Virus record (IMG/VR): IMGVR_UViG_2703719355_000017
From: a virus
Lineage: Duplodnaviria; Heunggongvirae; Uroviricota; Caudoviricetes
DNA length: 7,674 nucleotides
Strand: one strand, 5' to 3'
Below the pieces are notes generated by a model. It saw only the letters and a list, made by a program, of their open reading frames with translations. It made no database searches and had not been told where the DNA came from. Positions 1 through 7,674 of this stretch are shown piece after piece. Each line of letters opens with the position of its first letter. Position 1 is the stretch's first letter. A program made the position numbers and the translations under genes.

Positions 1-426
1 TCAATGCACAGCCACAATATTTCCTGCAGGGCCACCACGATTCATCTGGTTGAAACCAGCGATCGCCACTGCGACAAAATCATCAGCGTCTCTCACCAGT
101 CGTTCCCGCGTCTCCACTAGTTCCCGAAAATAGGCTGAGCTATGGCTGCGCATTCGGGCCACCAGCAGAGGTGGCATTGCTTTTTCGATAGCTGGTAACA
201 ACGCCTGAATTTTTTTAACCGCATCAGGGGTGTCTTTCTCCACCCAGCGGAAAATTTTCTGAGTATTGCGTGCCAGGGCTTCCGGATGGCTGTCGTCATA
301 CAGTTCAGGAAACGTCATACCCAACTCAAAATAAGCCTGGGTTATTCCAGCTGCTGGAACTTTTTCGCCATCAGGACGCGCCCAGGCATTCATCGCCATG
401 CGGATGTGTTCATGCTTGATTTTCAT
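1..426 (-). CDS. ydaT: YdaT-family prophage protein, 141 aa (proposed CII-like regulator)
   Basis: Complete ORF with ATG at 426..424 and TGA at 3..1. Its start overlaps the stop of the upstream HTH gene (ATGA), suggesting translational coupling. Size and position after a YdaS-like gene match the Rac-type ydaS-ydaT pair; N-terminus MKIKHEHI. Family assignment is from memory, not a search. Confidence 0.65.
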   Translation of the reverse strand: MKIKHEHIRMAMNAWARPDGEKVPAAGITQAYFELGMTFPELYDDSHPEALARNTQKIFRWVEKDTPDAVKKIQALLPAIEKAMPPLLVARMRSHSSAYFRELVETRERLVRDADDFVAVAIAGFNQMNRGGPAGNIVAVH

Positions 427-725
427 GAATCAACTCCATCAGATAAGCATGCACTACAATCACCTTCAGCATGAACTACATGTGTTTGCCCCAAACGAAT
501 GCCGCTCGCATACTCAGGCCAAATAAGCTCCCAATCATGGGGTCGTAGCTCCGCCCTACTTACTTGGCCTTCCGTCGCAGATTCGATCATAAGGGCGCGG
601 GTTGGAGATATAGCTGCTCGTCCAGACGCCATTTGCGATAAGTAAGATGGCGATACACCAAGTCTGGCCGCGAATTTCTTAGCATCACCAACCCTCAATG
701 ATTTAATAAACTCTTTTAATGTCAT
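423..725 (-). CDS. ydaS: Cro-like YdaS-family HTH DNA-binding protein, 100 aa
   Basis: ATG at 725..723 with SD GAGG (734..731) 5 nt upstream on the minus strand. HTH-like segment AKKFAARLGVSPSYLSQMASGRAAISPTRALMIESATEG. Divergent from the repressor-like gene. Confidence 0.75.
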   Translation of the reverse strand: MTLKEFIKSLRVGDAKKFAARLGVSPSYLSQMASGRAAISPTRALMIESATEGQVSRAELRPHDWELIWPEYASGIRLGQTHVVHAEGDCSACLSDGVDS

Positions 726-729
726 ACCT

Positions 730-822
730 TCCTCGGTTTAGTGTTTTTTTGCGAGTTTAGTGTTTAATAAACCGTTAAGTCAAGTATTTGCTTGTTTAGT
801 GATTACTAAAGATAATTACCAC
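730..822. promoter_or_regulatory. Divergent back-to-back promoter/operator region (PR/PRM-like)
   Basis: Minus strand: -35 TTGACT (783..778), 18-nt spacer, -10 TAAACT (759..754). Plus strand: -35 TTGCTT (788-793), 17-nt spacer, -10 GATAAT (811-816), placing the start site at or next to the ATG at 823 (leaderless). GTTTAGTG occurs three times (736-743, 755-762, 794-801), plus near-palindrome GTTTAATAAAC (762-772). Confidence 0.5.
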
Positions 823-1194
823 ATGCAAAAAAAAGAAATTCGCCGTTTACGTCTCAAGGAGTGGTTTAAAGATAAAACTCTGCCACCCAAAGAGAAGAGC
901 TACCTATCTCAACTAATGAGTGGGAGGGCCTCGTTTGGAGAAAAGGCTGCCAGAAGAATAGAGCAAACATACGGGATGCCGGAAGGGTATCTGGATGCGG
1001 AATACGCAGAACAACCGGAAGTTTCTCCACCACATGCAGGGTTAACGTCTAATCAACTGGAATTATTGCAGATTTTTTCAGCCTTCCCTGAGGATGAGCA
1101 ACGCCAGATAATCAGCGAGTTAAAGCAGAAAAAAGAATCAATGGAAGATCTCATAGCGAGATGGATTGCGGCGCAAAAATGCCGCCGCGCCTGA
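823..1194 (+). CDS. paaR2: CI-like HTH repressor, 123 aa; regulator of the three-component TA module (PaaR2-like)
   Basis: ORF 760..1194, but the ATG at 760 lies inside the operator/promoter. ATG at 823 sits just downstream of the GATAAT -10 and has no SD, consistent with a leaderless mRNA. HTH-like segment EKSYLSQLMSGRASFGEKAARRIEQTYGMPEGYLD. Followed 20 nt later by the antitoxin gene. Confidence 0.7.
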   Translation: MQKKEIRRLRLKEWFKDKTLPPKEKSYLSQLMSGRASFGEKAARRIEQTYGMPEGYLDAEYAEQPEVSPPHAGLTSNQLELLQIFSAFPEDEQRQIISELKQKKESMEDLIARWIAAQKCRRA

Positions 1195-1214
1195 GTTATA
1201 AAACCGGAGGAAAC

Positions 1215-1406
1215 ATGAATAGAGCCCTTTCACCAATGGTTTCTGAATTTGAAACCATTGAACAAGAAAACAGTTACAACGAATGGCTGCGTGCGAAAGT
1301 AGCAACGAGCCTTGCAGATCCGCGCCCAGCAATTCCCCATGACGAAGTTGAGCGCAGAATGGCAGAACGCTTTGCTAAAATGCGCAAGGAACGGAGCAAG
1401 CAGTAA
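1215..1406 (+). CDS. paaA2: Small antitoxin, 63 aa (PaaA2-like)
   Basis: ATG at 1215 with SD GGAGG (1206-1210). Charged, probably disordered 63-aa product MNRALSPMVSEFETIEQENSYNEWLRAKVATSLADPRPAIPHDEVERRMAERFAKMRKERSKQ. Stop TAA 1404-1406 lies 1 nt before the toxin ATG. Confidence 0.8.
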   Translation: MNRALSPMVSEFETIEQENSYNEWLRAKVATSLADPRPAIPHDEVERRMAERFAKMRKERSKQ

Positions 1407-1407
1407 A

Positions 1408-1686
1408 ATGTTACCCGTGTTATGGCTTGAAAACGCAGATACCGACCTAGATGATATAGCTAGCTATATTGCTCGTTTCGACATAGATGCGGCTGAACGC
1501 TTATGGCAGCGATTAAGGGGTTGTGTGCTGCCGTTATCCGAACATCCGTATTTATACCCACCAAGCGACAGAGTACCTGGCTTGCGTGAGATTGTAGCCC
1601 ACCCTAACTATATAATTCTATACCGCGTAACAACATCAAGCGTTGAAGTAGTAAACGTGATCCACGCAAGACGCCAGTTTCCCTAA
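1408..1686 (+). CDS. parE2: ParE/RelE-superfamily toxin, 92 aa (ParE2-like)
   Basis: ATG at 1408 immediately after the antitoxin stop. C-terminal signature of the ParE/RelE fold (YIILYRV...VEVVNVIHARRQ). The ORF track start at 1312 is inside the antitoxin gene and is rejected. Confidence 0.85.
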   Translation: MLPVLWLENADTDLDDIASYIARFDIDAAERLWQRLRGCVLPLSEHPYLYPPSDRVPGLREIVAHPNYIILYRVTTSSVEVVNVIHARRQFP

Positions 1687-1756
1687 CTTTCACTACCAAT
1701 AGAAACATAACAACCGCAACGACTTTATCAAAAGCGTTGTGTTTGTTACGCTCCGT

Positions 1757-1805
1757 GGTTTAGTTTTTACTTGACTTAAGTTTAATGTTTATTAAACTAA
1801 AAATA
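1757..1805 (+). promoter_or_regulatory. Second operator/promoter copy (OL/PL-like) downstream of the toxin gene
   Basis: GGTTTAGTTTTT (1757-1768) parallels GGTTTAGTGTTTTT at 735-748. -35 TTGACT (1771-1776), 16-nt spacer, -10 TAAACT (1793-1798). GTTTAATGTTTATTAAAC (1780-1797) matches GTTTAGTGTTTAATAAAC (755-772) at 16 of 18 positions. Confidence 0.45.
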
Positions 1806-1979
1806 CCAACCCACCCCGCCCCACAGAACGCCGGGCAATACTTCGAGTTACCAGGCAGTGGTCAGGGGGGTAAGTAGCCAGCCCGAGGCGTAAGAACATG
1901 ACGGCAGGGTTCAACTTTAATAACTATGCAGCAGGTTTTTGTTCCGCTACCCCGGCGTTAAGGGGAAACAGAGGATTTC

Positions 1980-2318
1980 TCAGTGGGCGAAGTCAAACAT
2001 CAGAATGGAAGGCATCCCAGGATCGGCAAAGAAGCAGCAATGGCGCTTTATATTGACATCAGCGCCATTACCGGACAGGTAAGAGTTATCAGAGCGGTAA
2101 CTAAGCGGTATGCGCCTTTGCTTCAGAAAGGCTCTGGTGAGTGCACCGAAGATACTGTCAACGATTTCGTCATCGAACTGCGAGGACTCATCTTCAGTTA
2201 CAAGGTGACCACAATTTTTGCAGATGGCTCCCGCGAAACTGTCAGAGCCCTGCGGCTTAAAGGATGTGTCAAAGACTTCGCCACCACATTCTGGGCAAGA
2301 AAACTTAATTGTATTCAT
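1980..2318 (-). CDS. Small zinc-ribbon protein, 112 aa from the ATG (function unknown)
   Basis: ATG at 2318..2316; the track's first codon is TTG at 2324. GAGG on the minus strand about 9 nt upstream. N-terminus carries CPECGG-x21-CKNCG (C-x2-C...C-x2-C) followed by an acidic stretch. Preferred over the co-extensive plus-strand ORF, which has more rare Arg codons (AGA/AGG/CGA). The C-terminal half is less protein-like, so true length is uncertain. Confidence 0.5.
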   Translation of the reverse strand: MNTIKFSCPECGGEVFDTSFKPQGSDSFAGAICKNCGHLVTEDESSQFDDEIVDSIFGALTRAFLKQRRIPLSYRSDNSYLSGNGADVNIKRHCCFFADPGMPSILMFDFAH

Positions 2319-2410
2319 AACCAATTTCCTCTCGAGTAACAGCCCCCTCAGAGGATACCACCTCGCCTGACGTGGTTAAAAGCAGGCAACGCTAACCACA
2401 AGGAGCTGAC

Positions 2411-2629
2411 ATGCAGAAACCAGAACCCACTATCATCGCACCAGGCTATACCGATGATGAACTTTATGAGTGGATGCGCCAGAAAATTAATGCAGCGCAG
2501 GATCTGAAATGGGCCAATGAAGCCAGGGCTAAGCAGGCTGAAAATCTGTCCGCTCTGGAGCAGGATATCACCAGACTGGAAAAAGCAGCGGCATTAAGCA
2601 TTGCCAGAATGATTACATACCCACGTTAA
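2411..2629 (+). CDS. Hypothetical protein, 72 aa, predicted helical/coiled-coil
   Basis: Strong SD AGGAG (2401-2405) 5 nt before ATG 2411. Product MQKPEPTIIAPGYTDDELYEWMRQKINAAQDLKWANEARAKQAENLSALEQDITRLEKAAALSIARMITYPR. No family recognised by eye. Confidence 0.7.
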   Translation: MQKPEPTIIAPGYTDDELYEWMRQKINAAQDLKWANEARAKQAENLSALEQDITRLEKAAALSIARMITYPR

Positions 2630-2651
2630 TAGCTAACCAACGAGGCTAATA

Positions 2652-3026
2652 ATGGAATTTAAAGATTTACCAATGCAATTCCAGGAAATGGCAGCGAATA
2701 TAGTTCGTTCCCAACTGGCGACTCTTGACCTGAGTACCGTAGAAAAAGAAACCATCGATACTATATCCAGTAACGTGCGTCGTGCCTTTATCGGTCTGTA
2801 CGAAGAGAAGCAGCTCTCTGATAACCAGGATTTACATGAAAAATACTTCCTGGATCTAATGGACATCATTAATAAGGGATTTGGCTTGTTAATGAAACAG
2901 AAAGGGATTCGAATGAACCCCCTTGAAAATTACTTCGCAACAAGAAGCATTAATTCCTGTGATTTAAAGCATCCCGCCACAGACGGGAGTGTTACAGCTA
3001 GCCATGAGATTTCGATTAATCATTAA
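2652..3026 (+). CDS. Hypothetical protein, 124 aa
   Basis: SD GAGG (2642-2645) 6 nt before ATG 2652. Starts 22 nt after the previous gene, suggesting an operon. Lower GC than flanking genes by eye. No family recognised. Confidence 0.7.
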   Translation: MEFKDLPMQFQEMAANIVRSQLATLDLSTVEKETIDTISSNVRRAFIGLYEEKQLSDNQDLHEKYFLDLMDIINKGFGLLMKQKGIRMNPLENYFATRSINSCDLKHPATDGSVTASHEISINH

Positions 3027-3114
3027 AATCAATAGCTATTTCAATAAGTGATGCCATCTCGTTGCGTTTTGTTGAATTCATCTTACGTAATACTTCATGT
3101 TGATTAGCACCTTT

Positions 3115-3155
3115 GGCGGCATCAGTTTAATTGCTGGCTGATGTCCGCCCTTTTT
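3115..3155 (+). terminator. Putative rho-independent terminator
   Basis: GC-rich stem GGCGGCATCAG (3115-3125) pairs with CTGATGTCCGCC (3138-3149) with one bulge; 12-nt loop; followed by TTTTT (3151-3155). Lies about 90 nt after the 124-aa gene. Confidence 0.5.
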
Positions 3156-3159
3156 AAAG

Positions 3160-3178
3160 TGAATTTTGTGATGCGGTG
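3160..3178. repeat. Left arm of a 19-bp perfect inverted repeat
   Basis: TGAATTTTGTGATGCGGTG (3160-3178) is the exact reverse complement of 3303-3321. Arms are separated by 124 bp. Confidence 0.9.
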
Positions 3179-3302
3179 AATGCGGCTCAGCGCACGCGGA
3201 ACAGTTAAAAAGGCCAGTTGACTTCCGTATTGGTTCTTATGGGTGGGTTCTCTGTATCCGGCGTTAATTGTTAACTGGTTAACGTCACCTGGAGGCACCA
3301 GG

Positions 3303-3321
3303 CACCGCATCACAAAATTCA
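3303..3321. repeat. Right arm of a 19-bp perfect inverted repeat
   Basis: CACCGCATCACAAAATTCA (3303-3321), reverse complement of 3160-3178. Confidence 0.9.
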
Positions 3322-3338
3322 TTGTTGAGGACGCGATA

Positions 3339-3527
3339 ATGGAAACGTTATTACCAAACGTTAATACGTCTGAAGGTTGCTTTGAAATTGGTGTCAAAAT
3401 CAGTAACCCTGTATTTACTGAAGATGCCATTAATAAGAGAAAACACGAACGGGAGCTATTAAATCAAATATGCATTGTTTCAATGCTGGCCCGTTTACGT
3501 CTGATGCAAAAAGGATACTGGCAATGA
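3339..3527 (+). CDS. Hypothetical small protein, 62 aa
   Basis: ATG 3339 with GAGGA (3327-3331) 7 nt upstream. The longer track ORF from 3243 would start inside the inverted-repeat region and is rejected. Stop TGA 3525-3527 overlaps the next start. Confidence 0.55.
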   Translation: METLLPNVNTSEGCFEIGVKISNPVFTEDAINKRKHERELLNQICIVSMLARLRLMQKGYWQ

Positions 3528-3715
3528 ATACATCATTTGCACTCGTTCTGACGGTTTTTCTTAATACGGGCGAGCCGCTTGACCTTATTGTTGACATACG
3601 TGACTCAATGGAAGAATGCATGGCTGCCGCAGCGGAACAGAAAATTCCCGGTAACTGTTATCCGGTTGATAAAGTTATTCGCATGGATAATAACGAAGTC
3701 CCGGCAGGGCTTTAA
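3524..3715 (+). CDS. Hypothetical small protein, 63 aa, with a short N-terminal hydrophobic segment
   Basis: ATG 3524 overlaps the preceding stop (ATGA), suggesting translational coupling. Product MNTSFALVLTVFLNTGEPLDL... The track ORF start at 3470 is upstream of the coupled ATG. Confidence 0.55.
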   Translation: MNTSFALVLTVFLNTGEPLDLIVDIRDSMEECMAAAAEQKIPGNCYPVDKVIRMDNNEVPAGL

Positions 3716-3805
3716 ACCAGTACCGTAATAAATATCCGGTTTCATTTTTATATGCCTGCAATGGCAGGGATTTGTTCACCCTAAAAATAGTTACGAGGTT
3801 TATCA

Positions 3806-6256
3806 ATGAGCGCTGATAAAGAAGAAATTGCACTATATTACGAAGCCAAAAATGACAAAGTCAGAAAACGCCTTGGGATTAAAGGCGGTTTTTACTGGCG
3901 CACAGCAAAAAAATTATCGATTGCAATATCACGCGGTGTTGTCGCAATGGACGATGCCGGATTTGACGAAGAGGATTTTAAAAAACCTGTTCGCGTCCAT
4001 TTACCCGTTGTGAATGACCTTCCTCCGGAAGGCGTGTTTGATACCGAATTCTGCAACCGATACGAAAAAGGCGGGGAAGATGGTATCACAATGGTACTTA
4101 TCGCGCCCTCTGTTCAGGATAAACCAGCCAGCACTGACAATACCAACGTCAACGGTGAAGACATGACTGAGATTGAGGAGAATATGCTCCTGCCAGTTTC
4201 AGGTCAGATTCTGCCTGTTCGATGGCTGGCGCAACACAACAGCGAAAAACCGATCACGCACGTTTCGCAGGACGAACTGCGCGCATTACATAACGCACAG
4301 GATGAAAAACTTCCCGCCGTTACCGCGCTGGCCATCTCAAATAAAGCAGCGCAACTCGAACCACTGGAAATTCGCGATCTCCACAAACTGGTACGCGACA
4401 CTGACAAAGTTTTCCCTAATCCTGGTAATTCAGACCTGGGACTGATGACCGCTTTTTTCGAAGCATACCTGGGCGCTGACTACACCGATCGCGGTCTGCT
4501 TACAAAAGAGTGGATGAAAGGAAATCGTGTTTCACGCATCACCCGCACGGCTTCCGGTGCTAATGCCGGTGGAGGGAACAAAACCGATCGCAATCCGAAT
4601 TTAGTACACACCTTTGATACGCTGGATGTGGAGATTGCAGCGGCCACACTTCCGATGGATTTTAATATTTATGAAATTCCGGGCAGCGTTTATCGTCGCG
4701 CAAAAGAAGTCGTCCGGAAGAAAGAAAGTCCGTTCAAAGAATGGTCCGCAGCACTTCGCGCAATCCCGGGTATCCTGGATTATTCCCGCGCCGCTATTTT
4801 TGCACTTATCCGGAGCGCACACCCTGAGTTTTATCATTACCCGGGACGCCTTCAGGGGTATATCAACGCCTATTTAACGGAGACTGATCACGAGAACCCT
4901 ACCGAGGAAACTCTCGCTGCTGCACGACATACACCGGAAAAAGATATCCTGGAAGAAGTTAACCGCGAACTGGCTGCTGAACACGAAACAGAAGAAGAAA
5001 AAAATAATGAGGAAAAATCACAACCGTCTGACGCAATGGCAGATGAACAGGCAACGGCTGAAGAAATGGAGCCGGATACAACTGAACATCACCAGGACAC
5101 GCAATCGCTGGATACTCAGGAACAGGTAGATCCAGTTAAACAGGTAAAAGTTACCGCTGACGAAGTAAACAAAATTATGCAGGCAGCCAATATCAGCCAG
5201 CCTGACGCCGATAAGTTACTTGCTGTATCACGTGGTGAATTTGTTGAGGGGATTAGCGCCCCTAATGATCCGAAATGGGTCAAGGGGATCCAGACTCGCG
5301 ATTCTGTGAACCAGAACCAGCATGAATCGGAACGGAACTACCAAAAAGCGGAACAAAACAGCCCAAATGCGTTACAAAACGAGCCAGAAACGAAACAACC
5401 TGAACCAGTAGTGCAACAGGAACCGGAAAAGATCTGCACCGCCTGCGGTCAGAGCGGTGGCGGCAACTGCCCTGATTGTGGTGCGGTGATGGGTGACGCA
5501 ACATACCAGGAAATATTCGATGGAGAGAATCAGCCTGAAGTTCAGGAAAATGATCCGGAGGAAATGGAAGGCACTGCGCATCAGCACAAGGAGAACACTG
5601 GCGGCAATCAGCATCATGCCAGCGATAGTGAAACTGGCGAGGCGTCAGATCCCTTAATTAAGGCGAACGGTCATCATAATCTCACATCCACCAGCAGAGC
5701 GGGGATTCATCTGATGATCGACCTTGAAACCATGGGAAAAAATCCCGATGCCCCGATTATCTCAATAGGTGCAATATTTTTCGATCCGCAAACCGGAGAT
5801 ATGGGACCGGAATTTAGTAAGACTATCGATCTGGAAACTGCTGGCGGAGTCATTGATCGGGACACCATTAAATGGTGGCTTAAACAATCACGCGAAGCGC
5901 AATCTGCCATTATGGCCGATGAAATCCCGTTAGATGATGCACTGTTACAATTGCGGGAATTTATCGACGAAAACTCCGGTGAATTTTTTGTTCATGTCTG
6001 GGGAAATGGAGCCAACTTCGACAACGTAATTTTACGCCGTTCATATGAACGACAGGGCATCCCCTGCCCGTGGCGCTACTGCAACGATCGCGATGTACGC
6101 ACAATTGTTGAACTGGGAAATTCCATTGGCTTTGATGTCAGAATGACTATTCCATTCGAAGGTGTACCTCACAATGCACTCGATGATGCACGTCACCAGG
6201 CAAAACAAGTTTCAGCTATCTGGCAAAAACTGATCCCGAGTCAGGCTGATTTTTAA
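3806..6256 (+). CDS. Large prophage exonuclease-like protein, 816 aa: N-terminal region of unknown function, acidic low-complexity linker, C4 zinc-ribbon motif, C-terminal DEDDh (DnaQ/RNase T-like) 3'-5' exonuclease domain
   Basis: SD GAGG (3795-3798) 7 nt before ATG 3806. DEDDh motifs read directly: Exo I MIDLETMG (D639, E641; nt 5720-5728), Exo II HVWGNGANFDN (D739; nt 6020-6022), Exo III HNALDD (H789, D794; nt 6170-6187). C-x2-C-x7-C-x2-C at residues 544-558 (nt 5435-5479). Acidic E/D/Q/T-rich region at about residues 360-630. Confidence 0.85.
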   Translation: MSADKEEIALYYEAKNDKVRKRLGIKGGFYWRTAKKLSIAISRGVVAMDDAGFDEEDFKKPVRVHLPVVNDLPPEGVFDTEFCNRYEKGGEDGITMVLIAPSVQDKPASTDNTNVNGEDMTEIEENMLLPVSGQILPVRWLAQHNSEKPITHVSQDELRALHNAQDEKLPAVTALAISNKAAQLEPLEIRDLHKLVRDTDKVFPNPGNSDLGLMTAFFEAYLGADYTDRGLLTKEWMKGNRVSRITRTASGANAGGGNKTDRNPNLVHTFDTLDVEIAAATLPMDFNIYEIPGSVYRRAKEVVRKKESPFKEWSAALRAIPGILDYSRAAIFALIRSAHPEFYHYPGRLQGYINAYLTETDHENPTEETLAAARHTPEKDILEEVNRELAAEHETEEEKNNEEKSQPSDAMADEQATAEEMEPDTTEHHQDTQSLDTQEQVDPVKQVKVTADEVNKIMQAANISQPDADKLLAVSRGEFVEGISAPNDPKWVKGIQTRDSVNQNQHESERNYQKAEQNSPNALQNEPETKQPEPVVQQEPEKICTACGQSGGGNCPDCGAVMGDATYQEIFDGENQPEVQENDPEEMEGTAHQHKENTGGNQHHASDSETGEASDPLIKANGHHNLTSTSRAGIHLMIDLETMGKNPDAPIISIGAIFFDPQTGDMGPEFSKTIDLETAGGVIDRDTIKWWLKQSREAQSAIMADEIPLDDALLQLREFIDENSGEFFVHVWGNGANFDNVILRRSYERQGIPCPWRYCNDRDVRTIVELGNSIGFDVRMTIPFEGVPHNALDDARHQAKQVSAIWQKLIPSQADF

Positions 6257-6299: not shown

Positions 6300-6317
6300 C
6301 GTTCCGGAGTGATAACC

Positions 6318-6587
6318 ATGAGCGAACAGTACCTGATAACGCTCGATGAGTGGAAACCCAAACGGTTCAGTCTCCCAATAACAAACACTACCCTGGTGAA
6401 ATACGGAAAACTTGGATACATCGTACCAAGACCACAAAAAATTCGTGGACGTTGGCTGATAGATCGCCGGGCAGTATTTGTTGGACCTGGTGAAACGGGA
6501 ATTGCGCCGGAAATTCATACTGGCGATGATGATGCACTGAAGGAGATTTTAACTCATGTCACCGAGGCCACGAAAAAACAGCACTGA
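6318..6587 (+). CDS. xis: Excisionase (lambda Xis-like), 89 aa
   Basis: ATG 6318 with GGAG 8 nt upstream; the track start at 6309 is a GTG in the same frame. Segment YLITLDEWKPKRFSLPITNTTLVKYGKLGYIVPRPQKIRGRWLIDRRAVFV resembles lambda Xis as recalled. 3' end overlaps the int start by 32 nt, as in lambda. Confidence 0.75.
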   Translation: MSEQYLITLDEWKPKRFSLPITNTTLVKYGKLGYIVPRPQKIRGRWLIDRRAVFVGPGETGIAPEIHTGDDDALKEILTHVTEATKKQH

Positions 6588-7674
6588 CGTAGCCGGTCTT
6601 TACGAAAAGTTTGATCGCAGAACTGGCAGAGTTTACTACCAGTATAAAAACCCTGTGACTGGAAAATTTCACGGACTCGGAACAGACAAAGGCAAAGCTG
6701 AAAGAATCGCTTCCACAGCCAATCAGCGAATAGCTGCAGCAGAAGCCGAATATTTCATGCGCAAAATTGATGAAAGCCCGTCAGCAACAAAACGTCGGGG
6801 TATCAGATTAAAGGCATGGGTTGATCGATATCTGAAAATACAGGACGCGCGGCTGAAAAATGGAGATATTGCAGCTACAACCCACAAAGAAAAAGCGCGA
6901 ATGGCTGCATACCTGGTTTCCCGTCTGGGAAACCACCCATTGAAAGAACTGGAAGTAAGAGACTTTGCATTAATACTGGATGAGTGGCTGGATAAAGACA
7001 TGGTCAGCACAGCGAGAGTAAATCGTGGATTATGGGTTGATATTTATAAAGAAGCACAGCATGCAGGGGAAGTTCCTCCTGGATGGAATCCTCCGGAGGC
7101 TACCCGTAAACCGATCCCTAAAGTAACCAGAGCCAGGCTCACCATGGAAGACTGGCAAAAAATTTACAATGCAACGCCTGAAAAACACTTTATCCGTAAC
7201 GCAATGCTTCTTGCGATTGTTACTGGTCAGCGCCGTGATGACATTTGCCACATGCGTTTTTCAGATGTGTGGAACGAACACTTGCATATCACCCAGGGAA
7301 AAACCGGAATGCGTCTGGCGTTACCGCTTACACTACGCTGTGATGCCATTGGGATAACGTTAAAAGAAGTTATTGATGGGTGCCGAGACAGAATATTAAG
7401 TCCATATCTAATCCATAGTCGGCACCAGAAACAACCGAAGCCGATGAGTAAAGACAACCTGAGCGACTACTTTGCCAAAGCACGGGATCTGGCTGGGATA
7501 ATTCCACCAGCAGGAAAAACTCCGCCAACATTTCATGAACAACGCTCTCTATCAGAACGGCTGTACCGTGCACAGGGTATCGATACAAAAACATTACTAG
7601 GACATAAAGTCCAGGCAACCACCGATCGCTATAACGATACTCGAGGTCAGGAATGGGTTAAGTTGGTTATTTGA
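6556..7674 (+). CDS. int: Tyrosine site-specific integrase, lambda Int family, 372 aa
   Basis: ATG 6556 with SD AGGAG (6541-6545). Basic N-terminal arm-type domain (YYQYKNPVTGKFHGLGTDKGKAERIA). Catalytic-domain motifs VTGQRRDD, QGKTG, PPTFHEQRSLSERLY, LLGHK, and TTDRY with the presumed catalytic Tyr359 (nt 7630-7632). Strongly resembles lambda Int as recalled. Stop TGA at 7672-7674 is the window end. Confidence 0.93.
   Translation: MSPRPRKNSTDVAGLYEKFDRRTGRVYYQYKNPVTGKFHGLGTDKGKAERIASTANQRIAAAEAEYFMRKIDESPSATKRRGIRLKAWVDRYLKIQDARLKNGDIAATTHKEKARMAAYLVSRLGNHPLKELEVRDFALILDEWLDKDMVSTARVNRGLWVDIYKEAQHAGEVPPGWNPPEATRKPIPKVTRARLTMEDWQKIYNATPEKHFIRNAMLLAIVTGQRRDDICHMRFSDVWNEHLHITQGKTGMRLALPLTLRCDAIGITLKEVIDGCRDRILSPYLIHSRHQKQPKPMSKDNLSDYFAKARDLAGIIPPAGKTPPTFHEQRSLSERLYRAQGIDTKTLLGHKVQATTDRYNDTRGQEWVKLVI

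Follow-up and report, generated by a model that had tools for sequence, protein, structure and literature searches.

A probable CP-933P/Sp12-type immunity region, with a toxin-antitoxin pair between repressor and PL, in a mosaic lambdoid prophage

Background

The closest described relative of the locus considered here is the paaR2-paaA2-parE2 / ydaS-ydaT immunity region of prophage CP-933P. The module, its regulators, the OL/PL copy and the YdaT box with its PRE-type promoter have all been published already (PMC8630535, PMC9986795). For CP-933P, footprints, 5' RACE and leaderless translation have been shown, as have bistable, heritable expression states; the N-terminus of PaaR2 (MQKKE) has been fixed by experiment, and the promoter PL933P with its operators OL1-3 is repressed by both PaaR2 and YdaS (PMC8630535). 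The YdaT box has been footprinted, and YdaT thereby activates a PRE-type promoter reading towards paaR2 (PMC9986795). The paaA2-parE2 pair causes post-segregational killing with a protease-labile antitoxin, and the role published for it is addiction or plasmid stabilisation, not exclusion (PMC8630535). According to the authors of the mBio paper, ParE2 activity was undetectable in either state of the switch (PMC8630535). Hence the physiological role of the pair rests on plasmid-stabilisation assays.

Phage lambda offers a second point of reference. There, too, the gene of the lysogenic repressor is followed immediately by cargo that lies within the OR-OL interval and is expressed in the lysogen; the repressor mRNA made from PRM is leaderless, and the logic of PR, PRM, PL and PRE is common to both systems. 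The differences lie in the cargo and in the repressor. RexAB acts in exclusion or abortive infection, whereas PaaA2-ParE2 is a toxin-antitoxin (TA) system of type II with a published role in addiction, and CI has an S24 autocleavage domain that PaaR2 lacks. The original prediction took the positional analogy between paaA2-parE2 and rexA-rexB to be the point of interest, but that analogy is likewise already in print (PMC9986795).

Results

We analysed one stretch of phage DNA of 7,674 nucleotides (IMG/VR record IMGVR_UViG_2703719355_000017), called the window below. Our reference was prophage Sp12 of the Sakai strain, which is said to be identical to CP-933P and whose proteins match the solved structures. 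Positions 12-2668 of the window are 95.1% identical to Sp12 at the nucleotide level. The list of open reading frames contains five intact genes, ydaT, ydaS, paaR2, paaA2 and parE2, which have the same order, orientation and spacing as in Sp12/CP-933P and correspond to Sakai genes ECs_2277-2281. Comparison of the window proteins with those of Sp12 gave 121/123 identical residues for PaaR2 (ECs_2279), 63/63 for PaaA2 (ECs_2280), 90/92 for ParE2 (ECs_2281), 99/100 for YdaS and 117/141 for YdaT. This near-identity bears out the match to the CP-933P module that had been proposed. The observation behind the original prediction is real, and the genes had been read at their correct positions. We conclude that the locus is very probably the immunity region of a lambdoid prophage of the CP-933P/Sp12 type, and we found nothing in the window sequence that contradicts this explanation. 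Rfam at its gathering thresholds gave no match in the window.

The window is nevertheless not a copy of Sp12. It differs in carrying another allele of YdaT, in the early-left operon, which is mosaic past 2668, and in xis and int (6301-7674), which are unrelated to those of Sp12; int is intact and encodes 372 aa, while its Sp12 counterpart is a pseudogene. Among complete RefSeq E. coli genomes, no match to the whole window exceeded about 93% identity at 94% coverage.

The gene of the CI-analogue repressor, paaR2, occupies 823-1194 on the plus strand and encodes 123 aa from the ATG at 823. PaaR2 combines an N-domain of the helix-turn-helix (HTH) type with a C-domain that is helical, and Pfam finds no S24 peptidase domain in it; its PHROG annotation is 'transcriptional regulator'. 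In a PDB sequence search residues 1-65 proved identical to entry 7nkv, 'phage repressor protein CI', and both substitutions relative to Sp12 (G66E and G67V) fall in the inter-domain linker. A scan of representative genomes recovered distant homologues only, at 44-76% identity, from Xenorhabdus, Photorhabdus, Yersinia, Erwinia and others, and no PaaA or ParE in the loci of these homologues.

An HTH gene followed by a 63-aa antitoxin and a toxin of the ParE fold had been predicted, and open reading frames, Pfam and PDB matches agree in confirming it. The antitoxin gene paaA2 (1215-1406, plus strand) starts at the ATG at 1215, and the 20-nt gap that separates it from paaR2 contains a ribosome binding site, GGAGG, at 1206-1210. 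Residues 2-63 of PaaA2 are identical to PDB 3zbe/5cw7, and the protein belongs to PF21217 (PaaA2, E 1e-19), a family of short antitoxins without a DNA-binding domain. One nucleotide further on, parE2 (1408-1686, plus strand) encodes 92 aa from the ATG at 1408. Its product carries S9N and T18A relative to Sp12, is identical to PDB 5cw7_B at 90 of 92 positions and matches PF05016 (ParE_toxin, E 1.6e-16). Thus an antitoxin of the PaaA family, a ParE toxin directly downstream and a separate HTH regulator upstream on the same strand, the components of a three-component type II TA system, are all present. The terminator scan found no terminator-like site from paaR2 to parE2. The spacing suggests that the three genes form one transcription unit here, co-transcription itself being known from CP-933P (PMC8630535). 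The unit may end at a stable hairpin at 1708-1748 on the plus strand, between parE2 and PL. The folded segment 1680-1770 has a minimum free energy of -19.5 kcal/mol (z = -3.2), and positions 1687-1748 do not differ from Sp12; the hairpin has no clean U-tract and was missed by the terminator scan.

On the opposite strand, ydaS (423-725, minus strand, 100 aa) encodes the Cro-analogue HTH repressor. YdaS differs at one residue from PDB 8c7k, as it does from the Sp12 protein, and matches Pfam YdaS_toxin and HTH_3. The start of ydaT (1-426, minus strand, 141 aa) overlaps the ydaS stop by ATGA. YdaT, the CII-analogue transcriptional activator, is 83% identical to its Sp12 counterpart, though the YdaT box is identical, and 90% identical to that of Sp4; its PDB matches are 3c4r (E 5e-89) and 8bt1 (E 7e-78), Pfam assigns it to YdaT_toxin, and PHROGs describes it as 'CII-like transcriptional activator'. 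The YdaT box (OM), TTGATTTTCATGAATCAA, at 416-433, spans the ydaS stop and the ydaT start. It matches the published 5'-TTGATTN6AATCAA-3' exactly, and the 50 nt around it are identical to Sp12. Since at least one match to this pattern occurred in 116 of 200 shuffled sequences, a single match alone is not statistically unusual; the probable significance of the box rests on its position and on its identity to a footprinted site.

The divergent control region (OR) between ydaS and paaR2 comprises the 97 bp at 726-822, of which 96 are identical to Sp12. GTTTAGT repeats start at 736, 755 and 794 (within 736-807). The motif occurs four times, always in one of the two regulatory regions, and none of 200 shuffled sequences reached four copies (mean 0.86). 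The promoter scan placed a PR-type promoter on the minus strand, with TTGACT at 783-778 and TAAACT at 759-754 separated by an 18-nt spacer. PRM on the plus strand would consist of TTGCTT (788-793) and GATAAT (811-816) with a 17-nt spacer, hexamers that are our own reading. The distance from GATAAT to the paaR2 ATG downstream, 6 nt, is compatible with a leaderless paaR2 mRNA, and transcription may start at or near the A of that ATG.

A second operator and promoter copy, the OL/PL analogue, lies just downstream of parE2 at 1757-1800 (plus strand) and is identical to Sp12. Its operator repeats at 1758-1771 and 1780-1793 are inverted repeats shared with OR. The promoter scan assigned PL to TTGACT (1771-1776) and TAAACT (1793-1798) on the plus strand with a 16-nt spacer, a pattern found in none of 200 shuffled sequences. 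The hexamers of PR and PL are alike, as the mBio paper reports (PMC8630535), and PL is directed rightward, into ydfC, dicB, exonuclease, xis and int of the early-left operon. The locus therefore has what marks an immunity region of the CP-933P type, namely operator repeats over PR and PRM, a second operator set with PL, and a YdaT box. The TA pair, as had been predicted, lies in the position of rexA-rexB, between the CI analogue and OL/PL.

Of the relatives compared, CP-933M/Sp4 resembles the window in having a repressor, a 63-aa PaaA and a ParE, flanked by a divergent cro/ydaT pair on one side and by a PL-type promoter on the other. The PaaR1 operators of its OR are repeated downstream of parE1, at that promoter, and the same conserved leader follows PL. 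It differs in immunity specificity. PaaR1 has an N-domain of the HTH_3 type, its identity to PaaR2 is no more than 42%, over the C-terminal 98 aa, and its operators are of a different type (AAAAACTGT / ACAGTTTTT); PaaA1 and ParE1 are 70% and 66% identical to PaaA2 and ParE2 of the window.

The comparison with the Rac prophage had also been suggested, and it holds for the layout, with the repressor divergent from ydaS-ydaT, and for the homology of YdaS (40% over 58 aa, E 2e-8) and YdaT (33% over 144 aa, E 2e-14). It does not extend to the repressor, as PaaR2 is not detectably like RacR (BLASTP E 0.3). Rac has a near-identical YdaT box at the start of ydaT (PMC11879457), and it keeps the leader downstream of PL, with 87% identity over window positions 1803-1966. 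The difference is that nothing is carried behind racR, the conserved PL leader beginning about 146 nt past the racR stop. Covariation in this leader was not found by RNAalifold, the sequences being too similar.

The window's left flank, up to about 432-442, is common to phages 606R7, Tritos and 640R1 and prophage Sp4, and all four match it again from about 1803-1812; in Rac the right flank alone (1803-1966) is common to both. Between the flanks all five differ from the window. The boundaries at which these heteroimmune relatives diverge enclose the TA pair, which is thus inside the exchangeable immunity cassette; ydaT is outside it. Rac, 606R7, Tritos and 640R1 carry nothing in the slot that follows the repressor, and in Sp4/CP-933M it holds paaA1-parE1 behind PaaR1. 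Of 5426 complete E. coli genomes, 17 have a tandem variant, in which a PaaR2-type repressor is followed by a PaaR1-type regulator and then by paaA-parE; NZ_CP015229.1 is an example. It resembles an intermediate left by the capture of a regulator-TA cassette behind the repressor of a prophage. By tblastn, phage Evi alone among deposited phage genomes has a close relative of ParE2. Hence the TA-bearing cassette is almost absent from deposited phage records.

Discussion

If the window copy works like that of CP-933P, to which the data on binding, promoter activities, bistability, operon structure and addiction all belong, its operation can be pictured as follows. PaaR2, as the CI analogue, and YdaS, as the Cro analogue, would compete for the GTTTAGT-type operators of the 97-bp region, giving a bistable switch. 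In one state PRM would transcribe paaR2-paaA2-parE2 as a leaderless mRNA, and in the other PR would transcribe ydaS-ydaT. PL, with its own operator copies just 3' of parE2, would also be repressed by both proteins. During establishment YdaT, as the CII analogue, would bind TTGATT-N6-AATCAA at the ydaS/ydaT junction and activate a PRE-type promoter whose transcript runs back into the operon of the repressor. The paaA2-parE2 pair would be cargo in the slot between repressor and OL, co-transcribed with the repressor. Labile PaaA2, degraded by ClpXP/ClpAP, would neutralise stable ParE2, and a cell losing the cassette would be poisoned by the toxin. Hence the cassette, and with it the prophage, would be addictive.

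Among TA systems of type II, several have a part in phage defence. One may ask if the pair is a functional counterpart of RexAB, a device for abortive infection or exclusion that the operon of the lysogenic repressor would express; such a role would be compatible with addiction. An infecting phage that stops host transcription or otherwise depletes PaaA2 would set ParE2 free, and the infection would be aborted. The position shared with rexAB, from repressor to OL, and the co-expression with the repressor speak for this suggestion. So does the nature of the slot, a variable cargo space that is TA-filled in two heteroimmune cassette types. Against it, PaaA2 and ParE2 show no sequence relationship to RexA or RexB (Pfam gives PaaA2 and ParE_toxin only), and none of the five proteins matches a PADLOC defence model. 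The CP-933P literature gives addiction or plasmid stabilisation, with no detectable activation of ParE2 in either state (PMC8630535), and in the literature on paaA2/parE2 and defence we found no exclusion phenotype. We consider the suggestion unlikely. Of the analogy with RexAB, the position stands; homology does not, and the role in print is addiction rather than exclusion.

Alternatively, the locus could be a plain three-component TA operon in which PaaR2 serves the TA pair only, its resemblance to an immunity region being coincidental. This is how the system was originally described (as reported in PMC8630535), and PaaA2, having no DNA-binding domain, does need a separate regulator. However, a PL-type promoter downstream of parE2 has a second copy of the operators, the heteroimmune phages have their boundaries at the same places as the cassette, the N-domain of PaaR2 is fused in other taxa to Peptidase_S24, as in repressors of the CI/LexA type, and PaaR2 represses both PR and PL in published assays (PMC8630535). 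Contradicted by published and comparative data alike, this reading is very improbable and we reject it. The Pfam names YdaS_toxin and YdaT_toxin might suggest another reading, with ydaS-ydaT as a toxin-antitoxin pair in its own right. This is extremely improbable and is likewise rejected, for in published work YdaT was not toxic and both proteins were shown to be DNA-binding regulators (PMC8630535, PMC9986795, PMC11879457), PHROGs files YdaT as an activator, and the YdaT box is present and exact.

Conclusion

What the window itself establishes is the gene content, the near-identity to characterised proteins and sites, and the place of the TA pair inside an exchangeable cassette. As a discovery the locus matters little. 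The value of the check is that the window can be filed as an immunity cassette of the CP-933P/Sp12 type on the backbone of a different, mosaic prophage with an intact integrase. The comparison also lends modest support to the published idea that the immunity cassette received a TA pair by insertion and that the two move together, since the slot is empty in Rac and three heteroimmune phages and filled in two cassette types, and since a rare tandem variant exists.

One speculation may be added. Beyond generic addiction, paaA-parE might guard the exchangeable immunity cassette, act as a RexAB-like abortive-infection device, or do both. We give this only a small chance, and we raise it because the pair lies strictly within the cassette boundaries, occurs in two heteroimmune types (the PaaR2 and PaaR1 types) and has a tandem variant. 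If true, systems that punish the loss or replacement of immunity would have a general landing site in the slot that follows lambdoid repressors.

Identity of the locus

All five genes of the original prediction are present and intact where it had placed them. In the ORF list, ydaT (1-426, minus strand, 141 aa) is overlapped through an ATGA by ydaS (423-725, minus strand, 100 aa). On the plus strand, paaR2, the HTH gene (823-1194, ATG at 823, 123 aa), is followed by paaA2 (1215-1406, 63 aa, with GGAGG upstream at 1206-1210) and by parE2 (1408-1686, 92 aa), which starts 1 nt past the paaA2 stop. In sequence searches of solved structures, all five proteins had near-identical counterparts. Residues 2-63 of the antitoxin are identical to PaaA2 (3zbe/5cw7) and the toxin is 90/92 identical to ParE2 (5cw7_B), which bears out the proposed paaA/parE-family pair. 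Residues 1-65 of the HTH protein are identical to the PaaR2 N-domain 7nkv, whose entry is titled 'phage repressor protein CI'. The structure 8c7k, 'phage antirepressor protein Cro', agrees with the 100-aa protein at 99/100 positions, and the 141-aa protein matches the YdaT structures 3c4r and 8bt1. Pfam is in accord (PaaA2, ParE_toxin, YdaS_toxin/HTH_3, YdaT_toxin), and PHROGs classes YdaT as a CII-like activator.

The same gene order is found in ECs_2277-2281 of the Sakai prophage Sp12, which is reported to be identical to CP-933P (PMC8630535). Sp12 and window 12-2668 share 95.1% nucleotide identity. OR, the control region between paaR2 and ydaS (726-822), is 96/97 identical, and the second operator and promoter copy (OL/PL, 1757-1800) and the YdaT box are identical. 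Among the proteins, identity is 63/63 for PaaA2, 90/92 for ParE2, 121/123 for PaaR2, 99/100 for YdaS and 117/141 for YdaT. The match to CP-933P proposed in the prediction is a near-identity of both proteins and sites.

Past 2668 the window is mosaic. Its xis and int (6301-7674) bear no relation to the Sp12 genes. The excisionase gene (6309-6587, plus strand) overlaps that of a lambda-type integrase (6556-7674, plus strand; 372 aa, Arm-DNA-binding and Phage_integrase domains), which is intact, whereas int of Sp12 is a pseudogene. In the closest whole-window relatives the integration site adjoins potC. Of 5426 complete E. coli genomes, 591 contain 80% or more of window 1-1900; for the whole window, no complete genome gives a better match than ~93% identity with 94% of the length covered.

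Control sites and proposed mechanism

Four copies of the operator word GTTTAGT are present in the 7.7 kb (736, 755, 794 and 1758), against a mean of 0.86 in shuffled sequences, none of which (0/200) reached four. A repeat search brought the operators to five copies, clustered at 736-807 and 1758-1793, and inverted repeats connect the two clusters. The promoter scan returned a PR-type promoter towards ydaS (783-754, minus strand, TTGACT-N18-TAAACT) and a PL-type promoter (1771-1798, plus strand, TTGACT-N16-TAAACT). By sequence, these predicted promoters match the published PR and PL, whose hexamers are identical to each other in CP-933P (PMC8630535). Our own reading of the sequence adds a PRM candidate on the plus strand (TTGCTT at 788-793, a 17-nt spacer, GATAAT at 811-816). 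Its GATAAT lies 6 nt upstream of the paaR2 ATG and so fits the leaderless paaR2 mRNA demonstrated in CP-933P (PMC8630535). An exact match to the published YdaT site TTGATTN6AATCAA (PMC9986795) at 416-433 spans the ydaS stop and the ydaT start. Between parE2 and PL, a stable hairpin (1708-1748, z = -3.2) may mark the end of the operon.

Since proteins and sites are near-identical to those of CP-933P, the published mechanism (PMC8630535; PMC9986795) can be transferred to the window copy, where we expect with high confidence that it would apply. The OR operators would be contested by PaaR2 and YdaS, each of which would also repress PL. PRM would be activated by PaaR2 at low levels, and a PRE-type promoter at the ydaS/ydaT junction by YdaT. 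Such a locus would be bistable, and co-transcription of the TA pair with the repressor would make the region addictive.

The rexAB slot

The TA pair is flanked by the repressor gene and the OL/PL copy, and thus occupies the position of lambda rexA-rexB, as had been claimed. The window, phages 606R7, Tritos and 640R1, and prophage Sp4 (CP-933M) have a common left flank up to ~432-442; these and Rac have a common right flank from ~1803-1812, directly after the PL -10. Between the flanks, the five heteroimmune relatives all differ from the window. Common flanks around a different interior place the exchangeable immunity cassette at roughly 433-1802; it holds ydaS, OR, paaR2, paaA2, parE2 and OL/PL. 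The PL side directly follows the repressor, without cargo, in 606R7, Tritos and 640R1, and in Rac the conserved PL leader starts ~146 nt past the racR stop. Sp4 carries paaA1-parE1 behind PaaR1 in the same slot, with the operators of the Sp4 cassette repeated downstream of parE1.

The leader itself (1803-1968, ~165 nt) follows closely on the PL -10, and the exchangeable cassette ends at it on the right. It is 87-97% identical in prophages and phages whose immunity cassettes differ (Sp4, Rac, 606R7, Tritos and 640R1). A role as a recombination linker is conceivable, as is one in antitermination or processing; RNAalifold returned a fold for it, although no covariation.

Lambda RexA and RexB are unrelated to PaaA2 or ParE2, neither of which matches PADLOC defence models. 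Activation of ParE2 was found in neither switch state, and stabilisation of the immunity region, not exclusion, was proposed as the role of the pair (PMC8630535). Our literature search found no report of a defence phenotype for paaA2/parE2. The parallel with the Rac racR/ydaS-ydaT layout holds, and PMC11879457 discusses it together with cross-binding of the YdaT box, but BLASTP detects no similarity between PaaR2 and RacR.

Relatives of the cassette

Escherichia phage Evi (LR597642.1; 6001-7899 of comparison locus L112) carries the entire ydaT-to-parE2 cassette at 96.3% identity. Its parE2 is unannotated yet intact (97.8%), and is the only close ParE2 relative that tblastn finds among deposited phage records.

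A tandem-regulator arrangement occurs in comparison loci L080-L091 and in 17/5426 complete E. coli genomes (L080 5001-6313; also L081-L089 and L091, e.g. NZ_CP015229.1). Here a 30-nt gap separates a PaaR2-type repressor (73% identical) from a downstream HTH_3 regulator of the PaaR1 type (131 aa, 58% identical to Sp4 PaaR1), and paaA (95%) and parE (88%) come next. This variant may represent a halfway stage in which a regulator-TA cassette was acquired by a prophage and placed behind its repressor. The divergent ydaS is retained next to more distant PaaR homologues (44-58% identity; Xenorhabdus, Photorhabdus, Yersinia and others), whose loci lack PaaA/ParE.

The C-domain of PaaR2 itself is helical, and the protein lacks an S24 autocleavage domain. 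Its N-terminal HTH domain recurs in Erwinia, Martelella and Yersinia loci (68-76% identity over ~58 aa), joined there to a Peptidase_S24 autocleavage domain (L018 2960-3625; L022 2715-3347; L025 4057-4725), a fusion that links it by homology to CI/LexA-type repressors. The fusions represent domain shuffling between SOS-inducible and non-inducible repressors.

Other early-left features

A zinc-ribbon ORF (1980-2324, minus strand, CxxC...CxxC) lies on the opposite strand within the early-left operon; relatives name it 'ECs_2282 family putative zinc-binding protein'. The window ORF encodes 114 aa, against the 66 aa annotated for it in Sp12 and further genomes, and therefore has a different 3' end. 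A sub-threshold DicF-like sRNA match (3104-3150, plus strand; 35.1 bits against the Rfam gathering score of 48, E 2e-5) precedes dicB (3342-3527, Pfam DicB E 2e-37) and a DUF1482 gene (3527-3715), in the same synteny as around the annotated DicF of Tritos. STnc100 also matches below threshold (3148-3371). The 816-aa exonuclease (3806-6256, plus strand) has an Exonuc_VIII (RecE N-terminal) region at its N-terminus and a Rv2179c-like 3'-5' exoribonuclease domain at its C-terminus, separated by a long acidic stretch of low complexity; the Sp12 gene has no nucleotide-level match to the N-terminal half of this exonuclease (~3800-5138).

Significance

The observation is confirmed and its interpretation supported. 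The guess that the module had already been described was right: the immunity-region context, PRM, PR, PL, PRE, the operators and bistability are all in Jurenas et al. 2021 (PMC8630535). The positional analogy to rexAB, offered as the point of interest, is not new either, because everything in the finding is already published (Jurenas et al. 2021; Prolic-Kalinsek et al.; PMC11879457). What the window presents is a system known from earlier work, carried in a mosaic backbone that is new.
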